From the NCBI GenBank assembly GCA_004284765.1, contig NQJD01000004.1, positions 1 through 32,000 on the forward strand: DNA of 32,000 nt, read 5' to 3'. The notes beneath the pieces were generated by a model. It did no database searches and had not been told where the DNA came from. It saw only the letters and a program-made list of their open reading frames with translations. The translations under genes were made by a program, and so were the position numbers. Source of the DNA: Candidatus Electronema aureum (GTDB taxonomy: Bacteria; Desulfobacterota; Desulfobulbia; Desulfobulbales; Desulfobulbaceae). Of the stretch, positions 7,985 through 31,389 are shown piece after piece; the first letter of the stretch is position 1, and each line of letters opens with the position of its first letter.

Positions 7985-8115
7985 AAGTGATAAATTCACT
8001 TTGTAGACTTCTAATTATAGAATCCCACCTACAGCTCCTCTTTATCACGCATCACGACAGAACATGAAATAGCCGGGCGCGTTCTTAATGAACAACCAAC
8101 ACGAAAGGAGTATTC

Positions 8116-10809
8116 GTGGATACAGTTACTGTTATCAGCGTAATCGTCGGTGGCATCTTAGCCGCATGGATTTTCGAGGATTCAGCGGGTTGGTTGACCG
8201 GAATGCTGCTTGGCTTTCTATTGGCAAAGCATTTCACCCAAAAGCGAACGCTGGTTCAGATAGAAAAACGACTACAGGAGGTTGAAGACCTGATTGAGGA
8301 GATACCGGAGGAAGAAGAACCAAAAATATCTTCTGTCATTAACACAGTCCAAGAGGAAAACAAACCAACCGGGTCTATTCATCCAGTTTTTTTCGCGCCA
8401 GAACCTCCGTCTTCTCCACTTCCTTCCAAAAGCATTGGCGGCAAAAAGGAAGCACCGCCAGAGCCAGCCGTTACGGAAAACGCTTTTTTTAGCAAACTCA
8501 GCGAGTTATTCACTCAAGGTAACGTTGTCCTCCGCGTCGGCCTGCTGGTGCTTTTTTTCGGCGTGGCCTTCCTGCTCAAATACGCTGCTGACCGCAACGT
8601 CATCCCGATTGAGCTGCGGCTGTTCACCGTGGCAATGGGCGGGCTGGCTCTGCTCGGTTTTGGCTGGCTCCAGCGGCAGGCGCGGCCCGGCTTTGCGCTG
8701 CTGGTGCAAGGAGGCGGCATCGGCATCATGTATCTGACTGTCTTCGCGGCCTTCAAGCTCTATCATCTGGTGCCGACACCGCTGGCGTTCGGCCTGATGC
8801 TGGGATTGGTCGCCGCCTCCACGGCCCTCGCTCTGCTGCAAGACTCCAGCCCGCTGGCCCTGTTCGGCGCGGCAGGCGGATTTCTTGCGCCGGTGCTGCT
8901 CTCCACCGGCAGCGGCAATCATGTCGCCCTGTTCAGCTACTACGCCCTGCTCAATTCAGGCATTCTGGCTGTGTCGTGGTTCAAGGCGTGGCGCAGCCTG
9001 AACCTGCTCGGCTTTGTCTTCATCCTCGGCATCGGCGCGGCCTGGGGCCTGAACAGCTACCAGCCAGAGCTTTTCGCCACCGCCGAGCCGTTCCTGATTC
9101 TCTTTTTCCTGATGTTCAACGCCATCGGCGTGCTCTTCGCCTTCCGCCAGCCGCCGAACCTGCGCGGCTATGTGGACGGCACCCTTGTTTTCGGCACGCC
9201 GGTGGTCTGCTTCTCGCTGCAAGCGGGGATGGTGCAGGACATGCCGCACGGCCTCGCCTACAGCGCGCTGGCCATGAGCCTGTTTTACGTCGTGCTGGCG
9301 ACCTTTCTCTGGAACAAAGGCGATGAGCGGCTGCGGCAGGGAATGCGCACCATGACTGAAGCCTTCCTCGCGCTCGGCGTGGTCTTTGTCACTTTGGCCG
9401 TGCCGCTGGCTCTGAGCGGACGCTGGACTGCCGTCACTTGGGCGATGGAAGGCGCGGCTTTGATCTGGGTGGGCATTCGGCAAAACCGCGTCCTTGCCCG
9501 TAGCACTGGCTTTCTGCTTCAGTTCGGAGCAGGATTTTTCTTCCTCGCTGATCTCGGCTATCACGGCGCAGGTGCCGCCCCGCTGCCGCTGCTCAACGGC
9601 ACGTGGCTTGGTTCCGCGATCATTGCCGTGTCCGCGCTCTTCTCCTCGTGGCAGCTTTATAAGGCGGACAATCTCCGCCGCTGGGAGCAATGGAATCATC
9701 TGCCGCTCTTCTTCTGGGGCGGCCTCTGGTGGTTCTGCGCCGGCATGAACGAGATTCCATACGGAGATAACAATGTTAGGGATCACGCCATGTTGCTTTT
9801 CAATGCCCTGAGCTGTGCTGTCATGGCCAGACTGGCTGTGAGGCTGAACTGGCCGCCCGCCGCTTGGCCCAGCCTGTGTCTGCCGTTGTTCATGCTCATC
9901 GTCATGCAGTCCAATCTGAACTGGAAATATATTTATCCATGGAACGGTCATCTATTTGGCGGCATAGGCGTGGCCGCTTGGCCGCTTGCTTTTATGCTGC
10001 TTTATCATTGCCTGCGGAAGGCGCACGGCCTTTTAAAAGAACACTGCTTGCGTCTGACGCATGGCAGCGGTTTTTTACTGCTGACTTTGACTGTTATCAT
10101 GGAGGCTCTTTGGCACCTGCGCCGTTTGACTGGCGGCGCAGGCGTATGGGACGACATAGCCTGGGGCCTGATTCCGACGGGCATGGTCTTGCTGGCGCAC
10201 AGCCGCCGCTTGGAAGCGCACTGGCCGCTGGCCGATTATGCCGCCGTGTATCAGCGGCAGGCTTCGGCGGTGCTGGCTTTCTTCATGTGGCTCTGGCTGC
10301 TGGCGGGCTACTTCGGCAGCGCAGGCGATGCGCCGCCGCTGCCCTTCATTCCTGTCGTCAATCCGCTGGAGCTGAGTCAGCTTGCGGTCATGCTCCTGCT
10401 CGTCTGGTGGACAATGCGGCATCATGCGCGCGCTGAATTCGCGGCGATGCTTGCAGTTGTCGGCGCGGGAACGGTTTTCCTTTGGCTTAACACGGCCTTG
10501 GCCCGCGCGGTGCATCATTTCGCGGCTGTGCCTTTTGATGCGGACGCGATGCTGGACTCCCGCCTCTATCAGACCTCGCTGGCCATCCTCTGGGCCTTGC
10601 TCTCGCTGGCCCTGATGCGCCGCCAAAGCCGGACGCTCTGGTTCGCGGGCTGCGTCCTGATCGGTGCCACGGTGCTGAAACTCTTCCTGATTGATCTGGC
10701 CAACAGCGGCGCGGCGGAGCGCATCGTTTCCTTCATCTCTGTCGGCCTCTTAGTCATTGCGATCAGCTACTTCTCGCCCTTGCCGCCCAAGAAGGAGGAA
10801 GCTCCATGA
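8116..10809 (+). CDS. Large polytopic membrane protein, DUF2339-like
   Basis: 897 aa. One N-terminal TM segment, an acidic and Pro-rich linker (EEIPEEEEPK...PPSSPLP), then more than 20 hydrophobic segments. GTG start at 8116 with aaaggag 5 nt upstream. The DUF2339 label is from memory of the architecture and of the adjacent DUF3999-type partner. Confidence 0.75.
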   Translation: MDTVTVISVIVGGILAAWIFEDSAGWLTGMLLGFLLAKHFTQKRTLVQIEKRLQEVEDLIEEIPEEEEPKISSVINTVQEENKPTGSIHPVFFAPEPPSSPLPSKSIGGKKEAPPEPAVTENAFFSKLSELFTQGNVVLRVGLLVLFFGVAFLLKYAADRNVIPIELRLFTVAMGGLALLGFGWLQRQARPGFALLVQGGGIGIMYLTVFAAFKLYHLVPTPLAFGLMLGLVAASTALALLQDSSPLALFGAAGGFLAPVLLSTGSGNHVALFSYYALLNSGILAVSWFKAWRSLNLLGFVFILGIGAAWGLNSYQPELFATAEPFLILFFLMFNAIGVLFAFRQPPNLRGYVDGTLVFGTPVVCFSLQAGMVQDMPHGLAYSALAMSLFYVVLATFLWNKGDERLRQGMRTMTEAFLALGVVFVTLAVPLALSGRWTAVTWAMEGAALIWVGIRQNRVLARSTGFLLQFGAGFFFLADLGYHGAGAAPLPLLNGTWLGSAIIAVSALFSSWQLYKADNLRRWEQWNHLPLFFWGGLWWFCAGMNEIPYGDNNVRDHAMLLFNALSCAVMARLAVRLNWPPAAWPSLCLPLFMLIVMQSNLNWKYIYPWNGHLFGGIGVAAWPLAFMLLYHCLRKAHGLLKEHCLRLTHGSGFLLLTLTVIMEALWHLRRLTGGAGVWDDIAWGLIPTGMVLLAHSRRLEAHWPLADYAAVYQRQASAVLAFFMWLWLLAGYFGSAGDAPPLPFIPVVNPLELSQLAVMLLLVWWTMRHHARAEFAAMLAVVGAGTVFLWLNTALARAVHHFAAVPFDADAMLDSRLYQTSLAILWALLSLALMRRQSRTLWFAGCVLIGATVLKLFLIDLANSGAAERIVSFISVGLLVIAISYFSPLPPKKEEAP

Positions 10810-12155
10810 ACCGTCTGCTCATTCTCTTGATTCTGCTGGCCACGCCGCCCTGTTGGGCCAAGGATGAGCCGCAGCCGCTGCGGCTGGAGGATTTCGCCTA
10901 CGGCATGGAGTTGAAGGTGAGCGGCGGCAGTCCGGTGGTCAGTCTGAGCCTGCCTGCTGAAGTGTACAAGGGCTGCGTCCGGCCTGATCTCGGCGACCTG
11001 CGGGTTTTCAACGCGCAGGGCCCGGTGCCGCATCTGCTCCGCCAGCCGCAGCCAGAGCAGAAGGAGAACCCTGCGCAAGAACTGCCGTTTTTTCCGCTTT
11101 CCGCTCCTGCTGGAGCTAACCGGGCGGCGGATTTCGGCATTGCCATCGGCGGCAACGGCACACTCATCGCCATCAGCGCAGGCGGGGCAGAAAAGGCAGT
11201 CCAAACCGTCACCGCCTATCTTATTGACATCTCTGCATTGCAGCACCGCCCGAACTGGCTAGACTTTGCTTGGCAAGGGCAGTTCTCCGCTTCGGTGCAG
11301 TTAGACAGTAGCGATGATCTGAATAGCTGGCAGCCTGTGACCTCAGCGGCTTTAGCTGAACTGAGTTTCGGCGGCCACAAGCTCCTACGCAACAGGATTG
11401 ACCTGAACCAAGCTGCAACAGGCAAATATTTGCGCCTGTCATGGTCGCCGGGCAAAGACGGCATCAGCCTAAGCGCGGTTAAAGCTGGGTACGAGAGCGA
11501 GACCCGGACGCAGCCGCGCACCCTGCTGACATTAGTCGGGCAGCCGGATGCAGCGGCGGCAGGTCATGCTGCTTGGTTCTACATGACCGATGGCTTTTTT
11601 CCAATTGATCAGCTTAATATCCGCCTGCCGGAGCAGAACTCGCTGGCGGAATTTGCTGTATTTTCAAGGGCAGATGAAAAAGCGGCTTGGCAGCAACGGG
11701 CTTCTTTGCTGGCTTGGCGGCTGACTGTGAACGGCGTGAATTTGGAAAATGGGCTGCTTCATCTTGCCCCGAATGCTGACCGTTATTGGCGGTTAGAAAT
11801 CGAAGGCAACGGCAGCCAGGTGCCAAAATTGGAACTGGGCTGGCTGCCGGGCCAGTTAATTTTCATGGCACAGGGCGAGGGGCCGTACAGTCTGGTCTAT
11901 GGTCGAGCCGGACTGCTGCCTGCGCACTCTCAGGTGGCGCAGCTCATCAAGGCCGTAGAACCAGTGAGCGGCAGCAAGCTGATTGAGGCTGCCAAAGCCG
12001 GTGCGCAGACTGTGCTGGCAGGCCAAACCGCGTTAGCGCCGAAGACGGAACTGCCTTGGCGCATCTGGCTGCTCTGGGCTGGACTGATCGCTGGTGTGCT
12101 GGCCGTGGGGGCGATGGCCTTGAAGCTGTTCAAGGAGATGAATAGCACTCGGTGA
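10806..12155 (+). CDS. Secreted, C-terminally anchored protein, DUF3999-like
   Basis: 449 aa with a signal peptide (MNRLLILLILLATPPCWAKD) and a single C-terminal TM segment (IWLLWAGLIAGVLAVGAMAL). The ATG overlaps the stop of the upstream gene (ATGA at 10806-10809). The family label is from memory of the conserved DUF2339/DUF3999 pairing. Confidence 0.7.
   Translation: MNRLLILLILLATPPCWAKDEPQPLRLEDFAYGMELKVSGGSPVVSLSLPAEVYKGCVRPDLGDLRVFNAQGPVPHLLRQPQPEQKENPAQELPFFPLSAPAGANRAADFGIAIGGNGTLIAISAGGAEKAVQTVTAYLIDISALQHRPNWLDFAWQGQFSASVQLDSSDDLNSWQPVTSAALAELSFGGHKLLRNRIDLNQAATGKYLRLSWSPGKDGISLSAVKAGYESETRTQPRTLLTLVGQPDAAAAGHAAWFYMTDGFFPIDQLNIRLPEQNSLAEFAVFSRADEKAAWQQRASLLAWRLTVNGVNLENGLLHLAPNADRYWRLEIEGNGSQVPKLELGWLPGQLIFMAQGEGPYSLVYGRAGLLPAHSQVAQLIKAVEPVSGSKLIEAAKAGAQTVLAGQTALAPKTELPWRIWLLWAGLIAGVLAVGAMALKLFKEMNSTR
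12104..12143 (+). repeat. Direct repeat copy 1 (attL-like); forms the functional 3' end of the DUF3999-like gene
   Basis: cgtgggggcgatggccttgaagctgttcaaggagatgaat matches 14652-14691 at 36 of 40 positions by hand alignment. Confidence 0.8.
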
Positions 12156-12371
12156 ACGGGCTTTATCGATTTTGTTTTGCAGAGGAATATTGCATTTTTT
12201 CTTCCTATCATTCGGTAGTTGGTATATATTGCACACCGATGCGTCACAATGGTATCGTGGCGTTCGCTTCGTTTCTGTCTTGCACCTCAGCGCGAAGTAC
12301 CGAAGACATTAAAATCTGAGTCAGACTTAACGGTCGATCTGTTATATTTCAACATACACCATTATATTGAT

Positions 12372-12857
12372 ATGAATAATCTTGTTATAGGAGAAAATTT
12401 AGAAATAGCCCCACATCTTCGAGCTATGTTACAGCACTCTTTTGATTCTCTCCAGAAATTACTAACGCCTGATGAGATGGAACGACTATCAGAACACGTT
12501 CGCAAAGTACAAGCAATTAATAATTATAACTATATACTTAAAATATCATCAAAAATTCAAGAGGCAAGACTTTTACACTTCGAAGAAAAAATACGGCAAA
12601 AAACTACGCAAAATTTAAATAAAATGTTTTTTTCATATAAAAAAGAACGTTCCAATATGCTATTGGATTTTGTAAAGCATTTAGATGCATGTAGATCAGA
12701 ATCTGATAAGTTGAAATATAATCCTTTTAAAAAGAATTTTGAAAAAACATTGGAAAAAACATTGGAAAAAACATTGGAAAACTTCATGGAGTATTTGAAC
12801 ACTATGGATAAAAATTTCGAGCGCGAATTCAGTAATCGGATTAAATTATTAATATAA
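12372..12857 (+). CDS. Hypothetical small alpha-helical protein carried by the island, with an (EKTL)3 repeat
   Basis: AT-rich ORF; the track ORF is 12219-12857. I placed the start at the ATG at 12372 (MNNLVIGENLEI) because the upstream part of the ORF runs through the GC-rich to AT-rich transition. No clear SD, so the start is uncertain. I recognise no family. Confidence 0.5.
   Translation: MNNLVIGENLEIAPHLRAMLQHSFDSLQKLLTPDEMERLSEHVRKVQAINNYNYILKISSKIQEARLLHFEEKIRQKTTQNLNKMFFSYKKERSNMLLDFVKHLDACRSESDKLKYNPFKKNFEKTLEKTLEKTLENFMEYLNTMDKNFEREFSNRIKLLI
12741..12782 (+). repeat. 12-bp tandem repeat gaaaaaacattg, about 3.5 copies, coding EKTLEKTLEKTLE
   Basis: Read directly: units at 12741-12752, 12753-12764 and 12765-12776, plus a partial unit. 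Confidence 0.9.
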
Positions 12858-12870
12858 TTAAAGACAAGTT

Positions 12871-14463
12871 ATGAAATTTTTCCTTCAAAGAATTGAACGA
12901 TCTCTTATTTATATTGCAGGATTTGACATAAATATATTAGAATCGCATCTAAAAGGATCGGGAAGGTCAGAAAAAATTAGGTTAGCTCAATTGGGTGCAA
13001 CGTTATTTGTCCCAGCAATAATTAGCGTTTTTTCTTTTCCTTATTTTTTATCTGCCGCAATTAATAATTTATTTATCATAATCATTTCTTCTTTTTTCTA
13101 TGCAATATCAATATTTTTATTAGACCGGTACTTTACTCTATCTTTCAGGAGGCATTCAAATCTACGATCTATTTGGGCAGTATCATGGAGGATGATAATT
13201 GCTATTTGTATAGGATTCGCTGTAACAGAGCCTTTAATAATTGCAATTTTTGCAAAAAGTATTAACAAGGAATTGACAGAACAGATTGATCGAGAAAAAT
13301 CAAACAAAGACAGTCCATTACAACAAAAGAAACAGCTACTTGAGACTAATATTGAGAAAACAAATAAGGAAATATCTGAGTTGCGAAATGCACTTACATC
13401 TGCGCGATCGCGTGTATCGCAGATAGATAGTGAAATTCAAAAATTATCTGAACAAGGCAACGCTGAAAAAAATCAGAAAAACGAAAAAATAAGCACGTTA
13501 GTTACATCAACAGAGCAAGAAATCAAAAAACTTCAATCACAGCTTGAAAGCTTGGAACAACAAATTTCAGATATAACGAAGAAAATTGCTTCTGAGCGTA
13601 TTGGAGCAGGAGATACTAAAAGGAAGGGATTTGGCACAGAGGCCAAACGCTTAACCACCGAAAAAAACAACTTGGTTTCCCAAAAAGCTACTGCAACTTC
13701 GGAGCTTAACCAGCTCAAGCGTGAACTGGAGAAACTTAAACGTACATTGTCTCAGTCAATACTACTTACTGAAAATCCTAATAAGTCTAAAATAGAAACA
13801 CTTTCTACGGAAAGAGCCAACCGTGTATTAAATCCAGTGCAGTACGCGCCAACTCAAGAAATTCGTGAAATAGAGTCACAAATAGACATAAGAAAAAAAT
13901 CTGTCGCTGAGTCTCTAAAAGAACTACAGTTTGTTAACCAACAGATTCAACAATTGACCGGAAATATAACTTTGACCGATCGCGATGATCCACTTGCTCG
14001 TTCATCAGCATTGTGGAGTATTCTGATAAAAAGTAAAAATCCTTTGGCATGGGCAATGTTTGGCTCCATAATTATATTGTTTATGGCTCTTGACACATTC
14101 CCTATAATAACAAAATTATCTTTCAAAGCACCAGCCGATGAAATATTGAAAAATATAGAAGAAGAAGATGTGGAATTTTTCACAAGCATGAAGGTACAAA
14201 AAATACTTTTAAGTGATTTTATTGAAGAAAACGCTTTTCGTGATATTGTAAACACTGGGAAAAATAGATCTGATTTGATAGTGGAATTGGCTATGAAATT
14301 TGGCTCAGACATTGAAAAAATCAATGATTCAAAATATGAAAAAAAAGAAATAATGATTGACGCCTTGGAAAAACACTTTAACTTTGTAATTTCAAAGATA
14401 GATCAATACCACCTAAGAGATACAAGTGGTAACACGGAATGTTCTGACGAGAATATATGTTGA
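12871..14463 (+). CDS. Membrane-anchored coiled-coil protein, DUF4407-like
   Basis: 530 aa. The N-terminus (IYIAGFDINILE...LAQLGATLFVPAII) and the layout resemble DUF4407 as I remember it. The layout is three TM segments (about aa 41-128), a heptad-rich Q/E/K coiled coil of about 240 aa (about nt 13255-13980), a fourth TM segment (about aa 385-410), then a C-terminal domain of about 120 aa. AT-rich codon usage differs from the flanking genes. Confidence 0.7.
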   Translation: MKFFLQRIERSLIYIAGFDINILESHLKGSGRSEKIRLAQLGATLFVPAIISVFSFPYFLSAAINNLFIIIISSFFYAISIFLLDRYFTLSFRRHSNLRSIWAVSWRMIIAICIGFAVTEPLIIAIFAKSINKELTEQIDREKSNKDSPLQQKKQLLETNIEKTNKEISELRNALTSARSRVSQIDSEIQKLSEQGNAEKNQKNEKISTLVTSTEQEIKKLQSQLESLEQQISDITKKIASERIGAGDTKRKGFGTEAKRLTTEKNNLVSQKATATSELNQLKRELEKLKRTLSQSILLTENPNKSKIETLSTERANRVLNPVQYAPTQEIREIESQIDIRKKSVAESLKELQFVNQQIQQLTGNITLTDRDDPLARSSALWSILIKSKNPLAWAMFGSIIILFMALDTFPIITKLSFKAPADEILKNIEEEDVEFFTSMKVQKILLSDFIEENAFRDIVNTGKNRSDLIVELAMKFGSDIEKINDSKYEKKEIMIDALEKHFNFVISKIDQYHLRDTSGNTECSDENIC

Positions 14464-14651
14464 TATATGCGGTATTTTTTATTTGCAATAGATCATCAGC
14501 TATATCATTTTGTAAAAGCTGAAACCGATGGCAGATTAGCTTGACGTACCAAACACTTTCATTTTTTCCACCACCTTCCTTCTGTGGCCGCCAATACAGC
14601 ATTCAGCCAACCAAATGAACGATCAACGATTTCTGGCCAATGTGAATTAGT

Positions 14652-14691
14652 CGTGAGAGCGATGGCCTTGAAGCTGTTCAGGGAGATGGAT
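14652..14691 (+). repeat. Direct repeat copy 2 (attR-like); displaced relic 3' end of the DUF3999-like gene
   Basis: cgtgagagcgatggccttgaagctgttcagggagatggat. In the frame equivalent to copy 1 it reads RAMALKLFREMD, followed by TAG at 14692-14694. Confidence 0.8.
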
Positions 14692-14695
14692 TAGG

Positions 14696-15376
14696 ACCTA
14701 ATGTGCAACTCTTTTAAACTTGATTAGACAGCAATCAGTCCATCCAGATGAAGCGGAGGGTGATTACAGGTCAAGTTAATGAAAACACAGACCGTATGCG
14801 CCAATATTTTACGAATCAGACGGTGCTGAAAATGCCAAAGATCGTGTACGCGGATATGGTCTGTTTTTGAAACGTCTTGTTAAATGGGAGCCTGCCGGTG
14901 TAGTGCATATCTTTAGCTGCGCAGTATCCAAAATCAGCCGCTGCCGGAAAACAACGGTCTCGTTTGGCTCTAGTGCGGACACAAACAGGCAATGGAAATG
15001 TATCAATTATTTGGACGGGATCGTTGAGTTGTTAAGCGTTGTTGAACAGCCGCTTTGACTTGCCATAAATTCGCAGCTTGGCGGACAAACAAAGACCTGT
15101 CATGGAGCTTCGGAAAAGAGTGCCGATAATGCGCATGAAAGTATGCAAAGATATCCTTGTCGCATTCGAGTTTGAAATACTCGCCGCAGATTTCTATGGT
15201 GATGACTTCTTCATCTGTTAAGGCAAGCTCAAAGCCGCCCCACCGCAGTCAGTATTGTTGTTTGATGACACTGTATTGCTCGCAAACAAGCAGATTTGTG
15301 AATAGGGATTAGATACCGCTATGCTACAGGATGCACCCAATGGATCGGGTATTTTTTTAAGAGTTGCACATTAGGT
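14696..15376 (-). mobile_element. Decayed insertion sequence (IS982/IS4-IS5-like DDE type) with intact 18-bp terminal inverted repeats
   Basis: acctaatgtgcaactctt at 14696-14713 is the exact reverse complement of aagagttgcacattaggt at 15359-15376. Transposase-like reading frames lie between them. At 681 bp the element is too short for a complete IS of this type. Confidence 0.8.
14819..15308 (-). pseudogene. DDE transposase pseudogene with an in-frame stop, a frameshift and a 3' truncation
   Basis: Minus-strand translation gives three pieces. First, SLFTNLLVCEQYSVIKQQY, ending at a TGA (15249-15251). Second, LRWGGFELALTDEEVITIEICGEYFKLECDKDIFAYFHAHYRHSFPKLHDRSLFVRQAANLWQVKAAVQQRL, ending at a TGA (15003-15005). 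Third, in another frame, IDTFPLPVCVRTRAKRDRCFPAAADFGYCAAKDMHY. These motifs are typical of IS982-type DDE_Tnp_1 transposase N-terminal halves. Only the first catalytic D region remains. Confidence 0.75.
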
Positions 15377-29713: not shown

Positions 29714-30601
29714 ATGAAGCATCAACCTGCATCAAAACGCTTTTTTTATCTACTGACAGCGGCGATGACGCTGTTTTGCTCAGAAGTATCAGCAAATGCT
29801 TCTGCTCAGGATGTCAATGAGCTTGATGACATTTGCATGTACTCGCAGCGCATTCTTAAAGATTACGCCCTGATTGGCATGGGTGTGACCTATCATGATC
29901 CCAAGAAAGATATCGACGAGAACATCAAGACGATCGATAAGTACTTCAAGGATATCGAAAGTCACAAATTGAATGAGAAGTTAAAAGCTGAGGTAGTTGA
30001 GGTTGAAAAATCTTGGAATGAGATCAAACCAGAATTCCAGAATGCCCCTGACAAGGCAAAAATGAGCGAGTTGCGCAAGAAGGTTGAGGCATATACCGTT
30101 CGCTGCGAGCAGGTTGCTGAAGATTTGGCTAAAGACACTGGCATCAAGGGCGAGCATGATGTAGTGCTGGTTGCAGAACTTGGTTTGGAATCACAACGTT
30201 TAGCTGCTCTGTATCTGATGAAAGCGTGGGGTGTTGCTGATGCCAACTACGAGCAGGAAGTAACGCAGACTGTCGATGAGACCGAAAGAATCTACAAAGA
30301 GTTGCTGGCAGCTGATGACAAGCTCGTTTCTAAAGAAATCAAAGAAAAGCTGAAAACGACTGAAAATGATTTTATTGCCTTCGGGGTGATGGCAAAAAGC
30401 AAATCAGGTCGTTTCATGCCTTCGGCAGCTGAGGAAAACGCCAGCAAGATTTTTGAAGCACTGCGGGAAATCTTGGCTATGGAGAAAAAATTAGTTGAAG
30501 GCAATGTTTCAGGATATTTCATTCCTGTAGCGGGCGAAAAGGCCATTCTTTTCGATAAATTCACCGTAATCTTGCAGGCAAAGGAGGAGGAGACAGTATG
30601 A
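29714..30601 (+). CDS. Secreted all-alpha protein with two internal PilJ/NarX-type four-helix-bundle-like repeats
   Basis: Signal peptide MKHQPASKRFFYLLTAAMTLFCSEVSANASA. Internal repeat signatures SQRILKDYALIGMGV and SQRLAALYLMKAWGV. No TM segment or output domain. A ggag sits upstream of the ATG. Confidence 0.7.
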   Translation: MKHQPASKRFFYLLTAAMTLFCSEVSANASAQDVNELDDICMYSQRILKDYALIGMGVTYHDPKKDIDENIKTIDKYFKDIESHKLNEKLKAEVVEVEKSWNEIKPEFQNAPDKAKMSELRKKVEAYTVRCEQVAEDLAKDTGIKGEHDVVLVAELGLESQRLAALYLMKAWGVADANYEQEVTQTVDETERIYKELLAADDKLVSKEIKEKLKTTENDFIAFGVMAKSKSGRFMPSAAEENASKIFEALREILAMEKKLVEGNVSGYFIPVAGEKAILFDKFTVILQAKEEETV

Positions 30602-31389
30602 AAAAAATTTCTCTCAAGGCATGGGCAGCAGTTGCCCTGTGTTGCGCAATGAGCGCAGGCAATGCAGCAGCAGATGTAAATCAGCAAGAGCTGGATATGC
30701 TGCAAACTGCTAAAAATGTAGAGATCGCCAGCCAGAAGATCACCAAAGCGTATTTCTACAAGCAGTTGGATATTCGCGCCGATCATGCAGGTAAGGATTT
30801 ACAGGACAGCATTGCTCAGATCAAACGCGACATTCTCACACTCCATGAAGGCATTAAGGGCAACGACAAGGAAGCAAAAAACATCGCAGTATTTCTTTCC
30901 TATACCCGTGATGAATTAGACAAAACAATAACTAAGCCCTACAGTAAGGAAGTTGGTGCGCTGATGATTGACTTCAGCGAATCCTTGCTTGAAGGTGCTG
31001 ATTTCCTGTCCACTCGGCACAGTAAAGATAAAGGACCAGAAGCAAAGATGCTGGCGGAAGTTGAGCGGCTGCTGTTTCTGTTAGAGCGGGTGAATAAATA
31101 CTACATCATCCACAAAGCTGGTTTCAAAGACTACAACAACGTGGTTCAGTTAGAGAAAGCAGTACAGGATTTTGAGGTCAGCTTGGCTAAGGTCAACGCT
31201 TACGGCGGTTATCCTGACGAAACCAAGGAAAGCGTTACCAAAATCAATCAGTTTTGGCCAGTGGCTAAAGAGTTTTACCTTGGTGTGCAACAGAATGCTT
31301 TACCGGTGATTGTGCTTGCATCCACTGATAAGCTGGAGAAGGAAGTGAGAACTTTGGAGAGCTTTCATCAGAGTCAAGTCGTGAAGTAA
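30598..31389 (+). CDS. Secreted all-alpha protein, paralogue of the upstream gene
   Basis: Signal peptide MKKISLKAWAAVALCCAMSAGNAAA and the same two-repeat helical layout (ASQKITKAYFYKQL, LERVNKYYIIHKAG). The ATG overlaps the upstream stop (ATGA), with aggaggagg upstream. Confidence 0.7.
   Translation: MKKISLKAWAAVALCCAMSAGNAAADVNQQELDMLQTAKNVEIASQKITKAYFYKQLDIRADHAGKDLQDSIAQIKRDILTLHEGIKGNDKEAKNIAVFLSYTRDELDKTITKPYSKEVGALMIDFSESLLEGADFLSTRHSKDKGPEAKMLAEVERLLFLLERVNKYYIIHKAGFKDYNNVVQLEKAVQDFEVSLAKVNAYGGYPDETKESVTKINQFWPVAKEFYLGVQQNALPVIVLASTDKLEKEVRTLESFHQSQVVK

Follow-up and report, generated by a model that had tools for sequence, protein, structure and literature searches.

A foreign two-gene insertion in a cable bacterium encodes a DUF4407 membrane protein and a fast-changing orphan partner

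The first 32,000 nucleotides of contig NQJD01000004.1 of the cable bacterium Candidatus Electronema aureum (the window) contain a 2,548-bp insertion with a guanine-plus-cytosine (GC) content of 34%, located in the 3′ end of a host gene of the DUF3999 family. This island carries two adjacent genes, referred to here as gene A and gene B (Table 1). An earlier sequence-only reading of the window had described a same-strand pair separated by 13 nt, and both open reading frames (ORFs) are indeed present on the forward strand, with 13 nt between the stop of gene A and the start of gene B. At the island's composition (34% GC), a stop-free frame has a chance of 2.5e-6 over 161 codons and of 4e-19 over 530 codons, arguing that neither ORF is a chance product. 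The pair is also the island's only cargo, as had been proposed, since the other ORF there, encoding 74 aa in antisense (14378-14602), is judged spurious. In the contigs of a variant, P0001, gene A (122-736) and gene B (733-1149) overlap by 4 nt (ATGA); the 13-nt gap and this overlap give the pair the tight, coupled layout of two-gene toxin-antitoxin or abortive-infection modules. Genes A and B thus form one two-gene operon, and no internal similarity between the two was found. As detailed below, the pair is horizontally acquired and tightly linked, joins a constrained DUF4407 membrane protein to a fast-changing soluble ORFan, and is gained and lost over short timescales.

The foreign origin claimed by the sequence-only reading rests on data: the low GC content, a 40-nt direct repeat of the host gene end and the lack of a comparable island in Candidatus Electronema sp. 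JC. GC content is 29-37% over the gene pair versus 52-63% in the flanks. The two repeat copies are identical at 36/40 positions and spaced by 2,548 nt; the left copy encodes ...LFKEMNSTR* and forms the present end of the DUF3999 gene. The DUF3999 proteins of a Desulfobulbaceae metagenome-assembled genome (MAG) and of Candidatus Electronema sp. JC (L003 and L004) end in ...AMALKLFREM.... The right copy matches these LFREM C-termini and therefore represents the displaced ancestral DUF3999 end. In Candidatus Electronema sp. JC, DUF3999 is not followed by a comparable stretch of low GC content. As in integrase islands, the repeats duplicate the target at a gene 3′ end, but no integrase or recombinase gene lies within the island, and neither an integrase nor a tRNA gene was found in or next to the 2.5-kb insertion. 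Moreover, a Shine-Dalgarno motif is missing upstream of the island genes (12346-12371 and 12845-12870), whereas host genes carry AAGGAG or GGAGGA upstream (8090-8115 and 10780-10805), a contrast that would fit a donor whose lineage makes little use of such sites.

Gene B is a member of a known but uncharacterised family, while its partner gene A is an orphan. The proposed assignment of gene B to DUF4407 is borne out by a match to Pfam PF14362 (E = 6.4e-40; 137.7 bits versus a cut-off of 31.3), which falls into two stretches together spanning residues 27-417. The first covers residues 27-185 and the second residues 191-417, the latter corresponding to profile positions 116-283 of 297 when the C-terminal part is scanned alone. 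Scanned separately, the C-terminal part scores 47.4 bits and the N-terminal part 58-79 bits with 11-residue X-masks. The DUF4407 domain hence takes in three N-terminal hydrophobic segments, a coil and a fourth hydrophobic segment; masking of gene B in 11-residue blocks traces most of the signal to residues 104-136 (the third transmembrane (TM) segment together with the beginning of the coil) and 82-92. The UniProt and NCBI entries of this Candidatus Electronema aureum protein (Table 1), placed on a 2.94-Mb contig, already bear the DUF4407 label. Relative to the family, gene B shares the layout of N-terminal TM segments, coil and further TM segment, yet it is very divergent, with a word-indexed search and tblastn returning only near-identical copies of itself. 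Its coil is longer (227 residues versus 168 profile positions), and it adds a 113-residue acidic C-terminal domain outside the profile. DUF4407 had been described as lacking an established function, and in the searchable literature it indeed occurs in three papers only, each time as an entry in a gene list.

The architecture read from the sequence, namely three N-terminal TM segments, a coil, a fourth TM segment and a family-less C-terminal domain, holds, with 113 residues in the last instead of the estimated ~120. Kyte-Doolittle peaks lie at residues ~45-56, 62-79, 109-122 and 398-409, within hydrophobic segments at residues ~42-62, 66-86, 104-128 and 392-417. The coil region (residues 129-391, ~260 residues) is rich in K/E/L/S/Q and is predicted to form long helices, which in a single-sequence AlphaFold2 (AF2) model comprise residues 149-245 and 254-299, with a break (GAGDTKRK) between them at 246-253. 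The C-terminal 113 residues are acidic (isoelectric point (pI) 4.6) and lie outside any family; scanned alone, they match no Pfam family and no PDB sequence. The N-terminus contains seven Lys/Arg residues and the TM2-TM3 loop three Arg residues, and the TM1-TM2 loop has four residues only. From the positive-inside rule, we infer that the N-terminus, the TM2-TM3 loop and the C-terminal domain are cytoplasmic (N-in, C-in). The coil would then probably fold into an antiparallel hairpin of ~115 residues per arm (~17 nm) on the periplasmic side.

Searches for more distant relatives of gene B returned none. In a word-indexed search of 5.8 billion proteins with the full-length protein, coiled-coil words prevailed and none of the 8,000 candidates was significant, and a coil-less chimera (residues 1-143 plus 364-530) matched only a near-identical fragment, P0002. 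Foldseek comparison of the gene B model with BFVD gave only SMC, tape-measure and similar coil noise, and PDB sequence searches with the whole protein, the TM domain or the C-terminal part returned nothing below E = 0.1.

Gene A had been given a length of 161-212 aa. The frame is indeed open from TTG 12219 (212 aa); however, homology between the window and a variant contig, L006, starts only ~60 nt upstream of ATG 12372 and is interrupted there by frame-breaking indels, which favours the 161-aa reading. The protein is basic (pI 9.2) and is predicted to be soluble and all-helical, with helices at residues 14-30, 33-112 and 120-160 in a single-sequence AF2 model (mean predicted local distance difference test (pLDDT) score 79.6). 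This model has no fold match in the PDB, and the sequence has no PDB match below E = 0.1. Consistent with the statement that gene A belongs to no recognised family, no meaningful Pfam, NCBIfam, PHROG or PADLOC match was obtained, and the word-indexed search of the 5.8 billion proteins returned the single cluster P0001 at 96% identity. The sole non-self match, P0003, which came from a phmmer search described below, is an FN3-repeat protein picked up through a repeated NNYNYIL motif and was rejected as spurious. By all these comparisons, gene A is an ORFan. Within it, a perfect 12-nt tandem repeat encodes a repeated (E)KTL motif (KTLE units); P0001 has one unit fewer than the window, so the copy number varies in frame.

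Variant copies of the pair were found in four short SRA-assembly (Logan) contigs from four runs, beside a further contig, L001 (SRR14559659), that is identical to the window, with gene A (161 aa) and gene B (530 aa) both intact, and that ends within an adjoining insertion-sequence remnant at window position 14722. In the P0001 contigs (ERR15459707 and ERR12035931), the shortened repeat of gene A is accompanied by an extended C-terminus, which a single additional base close to the 3′ end would explain, and only the first ~135-139 codons of gene B are present. In L006 (SRR10083319), gene A is intact (157 aa) and gene B is frameshifted in an A7 tract that is A6 in this contig, a difference that may reflect either strand slippage or faulty assembly. 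In L002 (SRR12445281), gene A is reduced to its last 44 codons and gene B carries Q224*; L002 and L006 have their first ~25 nt in common, after which L002 jumps to the last 44 gene A codons, marking a ~470-bp deletion. The homology between the window and L006 that begins ~60 nt before the gene A start further shows that the module occupies a different upstream context in L006.

The two genes differ sharply in the selection they have experienced. Between the window and L006, the ratio of non-synonymous to synonymous substitution rates (dN/dS; Nei-Gojobori, NG86) is 0.21 over 394 codons of gene B, and between the window and L002 this gene shows 20 synonymous and 10 non-synonymous differences; gene B is a real gene under purifying selection. 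In contrast, dN/dS of gene A (Nei-Gojobori) is 1.17 over 157 codons between the window and L006, with a dN of 0.28 and a dS of 0.24 in its C-terminal half, and a Fisher test on the synonymous and non-synonymous counts separates the two genes (p = 8e-6). Despite this, three variants keep the gene A frame open, even across an in-frame 12-nt indel, whereas simulated gene A sequences given 64 random substitutions did so in just 5.5% of cases (probability 0.055). Maintenance of the gene A ORF is therefore suggested by the data, though not decisively. The states observed are both genes intact (A+B+, window), gene A alone intact (A+B-, L006) and neither intact (A-B-, L002); A-B+ is not among these.

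Table 1. Features of the island and its immediate surroundings in the window
Feature	Position	Strand	Remarks
Left direct repeat (attL-like)	12104..12143	+	Present 3′ end of the DUF3999 gene, ending ...AMALKLFKEMNSTR*
Left arm / leader, non-coding	12144..12371	+	Only the last ~60 nt common to L006
Gene A	12372..12857	+	161-aa ORF, ATG 12372
12-nt tandem repeat in gene A	12741..12781	+	GAAAAAACATTG x3.4, perfect; Tandem Repeats Finder and repeat search
Gene B	12871..14463	+	530-aa DUF4407 membrane protein; UniRef100_A0A521G3U1, CAK8721291.1
Gene B residues 42-128, predicted three TM segments	12994..13254	+	Hydropathy, charge counts
Gene B residues 129-391, predicted coiled-coil region	13255..14043	+	AF2 DSSP; second DUF4407 stretch
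A7 tract in gene B	13466..13472	+	A6 in L006, giving a frameshift
Gene B residues 392-417, predicted fourth TM segment	14044..14121	+	Hydropathy peak 398-409
Gene B residues 418-530, acidic, predicted helical C-terminal domain	14122..14460	+	Pfam scan alone null; charge data
Right arm	14464..14651		Six-frame translation; no convincing gene
Right direct repeat (attR-like)	14652..14691	+	Encodes AMALKLFREMD*
IS982-family remnant, 681 bp	14696..15376	-	23-nt terminal inverted repeats; internally deleted, frameshifted

The rest of the island is sparse. Rfam has no family in the window or the island, the fold of the 228-nt leader is no stabler than that of shuffled sequence (z = +1.25), and promoter and terminator scans gave background levels. 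In the right arm, a transposase fragment picked out by eye at 14590-14640 found no support in Pfam or NCBIfam. The IS982 remnant, whose stitched translation matches NCBIfam transpos_IS982 over the N-terminal half of the transposase (E = 4.6e-23), begins 4 nt past the right repeat; it adjoins the pair and is not part of it. A back-translated att-site peptide pattern searched against JGI metagenomes gave two chance matches in unrelated genes and was discarded. Further out, the neighbours comprise sugar-modifying enzymes, DUF2339/DUF3999, SppA, a response regulator, MoaC, DnaJ, PurA, a T2SS-F/PilC-like protein and UDP-glucose dehydrogenase. The pair thus sits on a 2.5-kb att-flanked foreign insertion, yet no integrase accompanies it and all of its neighbours are housekeeping genes.

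Regarding the host gene itself, a DUF2339 gene (897 aa) and the DUF3999 gene (449 aa) overlap each other within 8116-12155 of the window, both from uncharacterised families. Besides the Desulfobulbaceae MAG and Candidatus Electronema sp. JC, a Synergistaceae MAG (L005, 24% identity) also has a DUF3999 homologue, and in L003 and L004 a long upstream ORF overlaps the DUF3999 start, like in the window. Elsewhere in the window, two forward-strand ORFs of low GC content (39-45%), encoding 295 and 263 aa, lie at 29714-30601 and 30598-31389 with a 4-nt overlap; neither has a Pfam, NCBIfam or PADLOC match, and they may be another foreign pair.

The sequence-only reading could tie the pair to no named system, and this stands: PADLOC (PADLOC-DB v2.0.0), NCBIfam, PHROG and the PDB yielded no match beyond coiled-coil noise. 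The best PADLOC match of gene B is to LmuB (29.9 bits), over residues 132-368 in the coil, followed by further coil-level matches to JetC, PbeC and ZorA3, and the PADLOC matches of gene A to ZorA2 and LeoBC (E ~0.003) fall on coil tails. NCBIfam and PHROG scans of the pair gave only SMC, Rad50 and tape-measure models, again coil noise. Neither protein matches a housekeeping family in Pfam, PADLOC, NCBIfam or PHROG. With tblastn, no match was obtained in 72,556 plasmids and 50,697 phages, for gene B even at E <= 10, and scans of viral contigs and JGI metagenomes detected no relatives. The pair occurs only in near-identical copies (95-96% protein identity for gene B) and not across diverse genomes.

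Our tentatively favoured reading, to which we give clearly less than even weight, is that the pair is a conflict module in which B may serve as a membrane effector or scaffold and A as a fast-evolving cytoplasmic controller or sensor. We favour it because of the contrast in selection between A and B, the translational coupling in one variant and the absence of A-B+. The pattern of A+B+, A+B- and A-B- states is that expected if B were harmful without A, although each supporting signal is weak. Under this reading, the module would act like two-gene membrane-acting abortive-infection or toxin-immunity pairs: B would be a constrained inner-membrane effector or scaffold with a coil hairpin reaching into the periplasm, and A a rapidly diversifying cytoplasmic partner that restrains B or senses an invader, possibly through the acidic cytoplasmic domain of B. 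Foreign origin, anatomy and the contrast in selection stand on data; the topology of B, this A-B contact and the conflict function are what we infer. A more specific version, which we regard as doubtful, is that the pair is an undescribed membrane-acting module of the abortive-infection or toxin-immunity kind, in which the hairpin and acidic domain of B would translate a signal from the envelope or the cytoplasm into damage to the membrane.

Known systems offer partial likenesses. Lambda RexA/RexB is a two-gene membrane-acting abortive-infection system, and our pair resembles it in combining a soluble, presumably cytoplasmic protein with a membrane protein of four predicted TM segments in a tight operon on horizontally acquired DNA. 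However, the pair has no similarity to Rex, Abi or any other PADLOC model, and gene B differs in its far greater size and its long predicted coiled-coil hairpin. ZorA of the Zorya system consists of a MotA-like TM domain plus a long coiled-coil tail, to which the TM bundle and very long coil of gene B are comparable; matches exist at coil level (gene A to ZorA2, E = 0.003; gene B to ZorA3, E = 0.55), but these are weak and compositional. Unlike ZorA, gene B matches no MotA/ExbB domain and is not accompanied by ZorB, ZorC or ZorD partners, and its coil returns to the membrane via the fourth TM segment.

Several observations weigh against the conflict reading. As a defence proposal it finds no homology support: the PADLOC matches are at coil level only and leave the TM and C-terminal domains of gene B unmatched, and the searchable literature contains no published link between DUF4407 and defence. 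The neighbourhood is a housekeeping one, and the island is an isolated foreign insertion rather than part of a defence island. When 1.84 billion representatives were searched exhaustively with phmmer, gene A recovered its own cluster P0001 alone, besides the spurious P0003, and since gene A is without homologues, the pair cannot be shown to co-occur in a conserved manner, which is how a system is usually recognised. The dN/dS of ~1 of gene A would also be produced by an ORF that is decaying or has no meaning. Two of the three lineages in which gene B can be judged carry a broken version of it, and it may simply be dispensable, while the frameshift and nonsense changes of the variants, each read from single short Logan contigs, could be assembly errors. 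With three or four lineages, the absence of A-B+ is statistically not meaningful. The AF2 single-sequence model of gene B has a mean pLDDT of 55.5 and is confident only in the coil (pLDDT 70-89). Finally, rapid gain and loss fits a conflict module and is equally expected of decaying foreign cargo.

That last point leads to the strongest alternative, which we consider only slightly less probable than the conflict reading: the pair may be cargo left behind and now decaying after a mobile element lost its integrase and all its other parts, with no current function in the cable bacterium, such that B was a DUF4407 protein useful in the donor and A is unconstrained or a meaningless ORF. The lack of an integrase or tRNA gene in or beside the 2.5-kb insertion, the adjoining IS982 remnant and the dN/dS of ~1 and missing homologues of gene A all agree with such decay, as do the frameshift (L006) and nonsense change (L002) in gene B and the deletion of gene A in L002. 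Yet the dN/dS of 0.21 shows that gene B was under selection during most of the copies' divergence, and the window and the identical contig L001 retain complete copies of both genes. Gene A speaks against decay as well, in that a 161-codon ORF in DNA of 34% GC is improbable (2.5e-6) and has remained stop-free through ~64 substitutions and an in-frame indel.

It is unlikely, in our view, that gene B is instead an envelope-structural or export-associated stalk with a hairpin of the Wzz/PCP type and gene A an incidental neighbour. Wzz/PCP polysaccharide co-polymerases are periplasm-spanning helical hairpin proteins, and gene B is similar in placing a long predicted helical hairpin, probably periplasmic, between TM helices. 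The N-terminal fragment P0002 also has a weak precomputed match to PF28006 (HpsJ), a family whose name comes from the cyanobacterial hormogonium polysaccharide locus, and sugar epimerase, methyltransferase and glycosyltransferase genes are among the upstream host genes. However, no Wzz, HpsJ or export family is matched in Pfam at E <= 1, the HpsJ match is flagged as weak and is absent from our own Pfam scan, and nothing useful was found in the HpsJ literature. Gene B further differs from Wzz/PCP proteins in its two extra N-terminal TM segments, its probably cytoplasmic C-terminal domain and its foreign context, and the DUF2339 and DUF3999 genes stand between the inserted pair and the glycosyltransferase genes. 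Loss of the gene in close relatives also argues against an envelope-structural role. Least probable of all is that the pair served maintenance or exclusion of a mobile element (entry or surface exclusion, or a function associated with transfer of an integrative or conjugative element) and was kept after the element decayed: the att-flanked insertion, the exposed coiled coil of membrane protein B and quick gain and loss among close relatives would suit this, but no conjugation, replication or recombination genes lie nearby, the plasmids and phages searched by tblastn contain no match, and the TM domain has no PHROG match.

Were the more specific version of the conflict reading to hold, the pair would offer a first way into the function of the widespread DUF4407 family. 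The pair is a compact, clonable 2.1-kb test case for DUF4407 proteins as conflict effectors; if the conflict idea fails, it would be one more uncharacterised accessory pair in a cable-bacterium genome.

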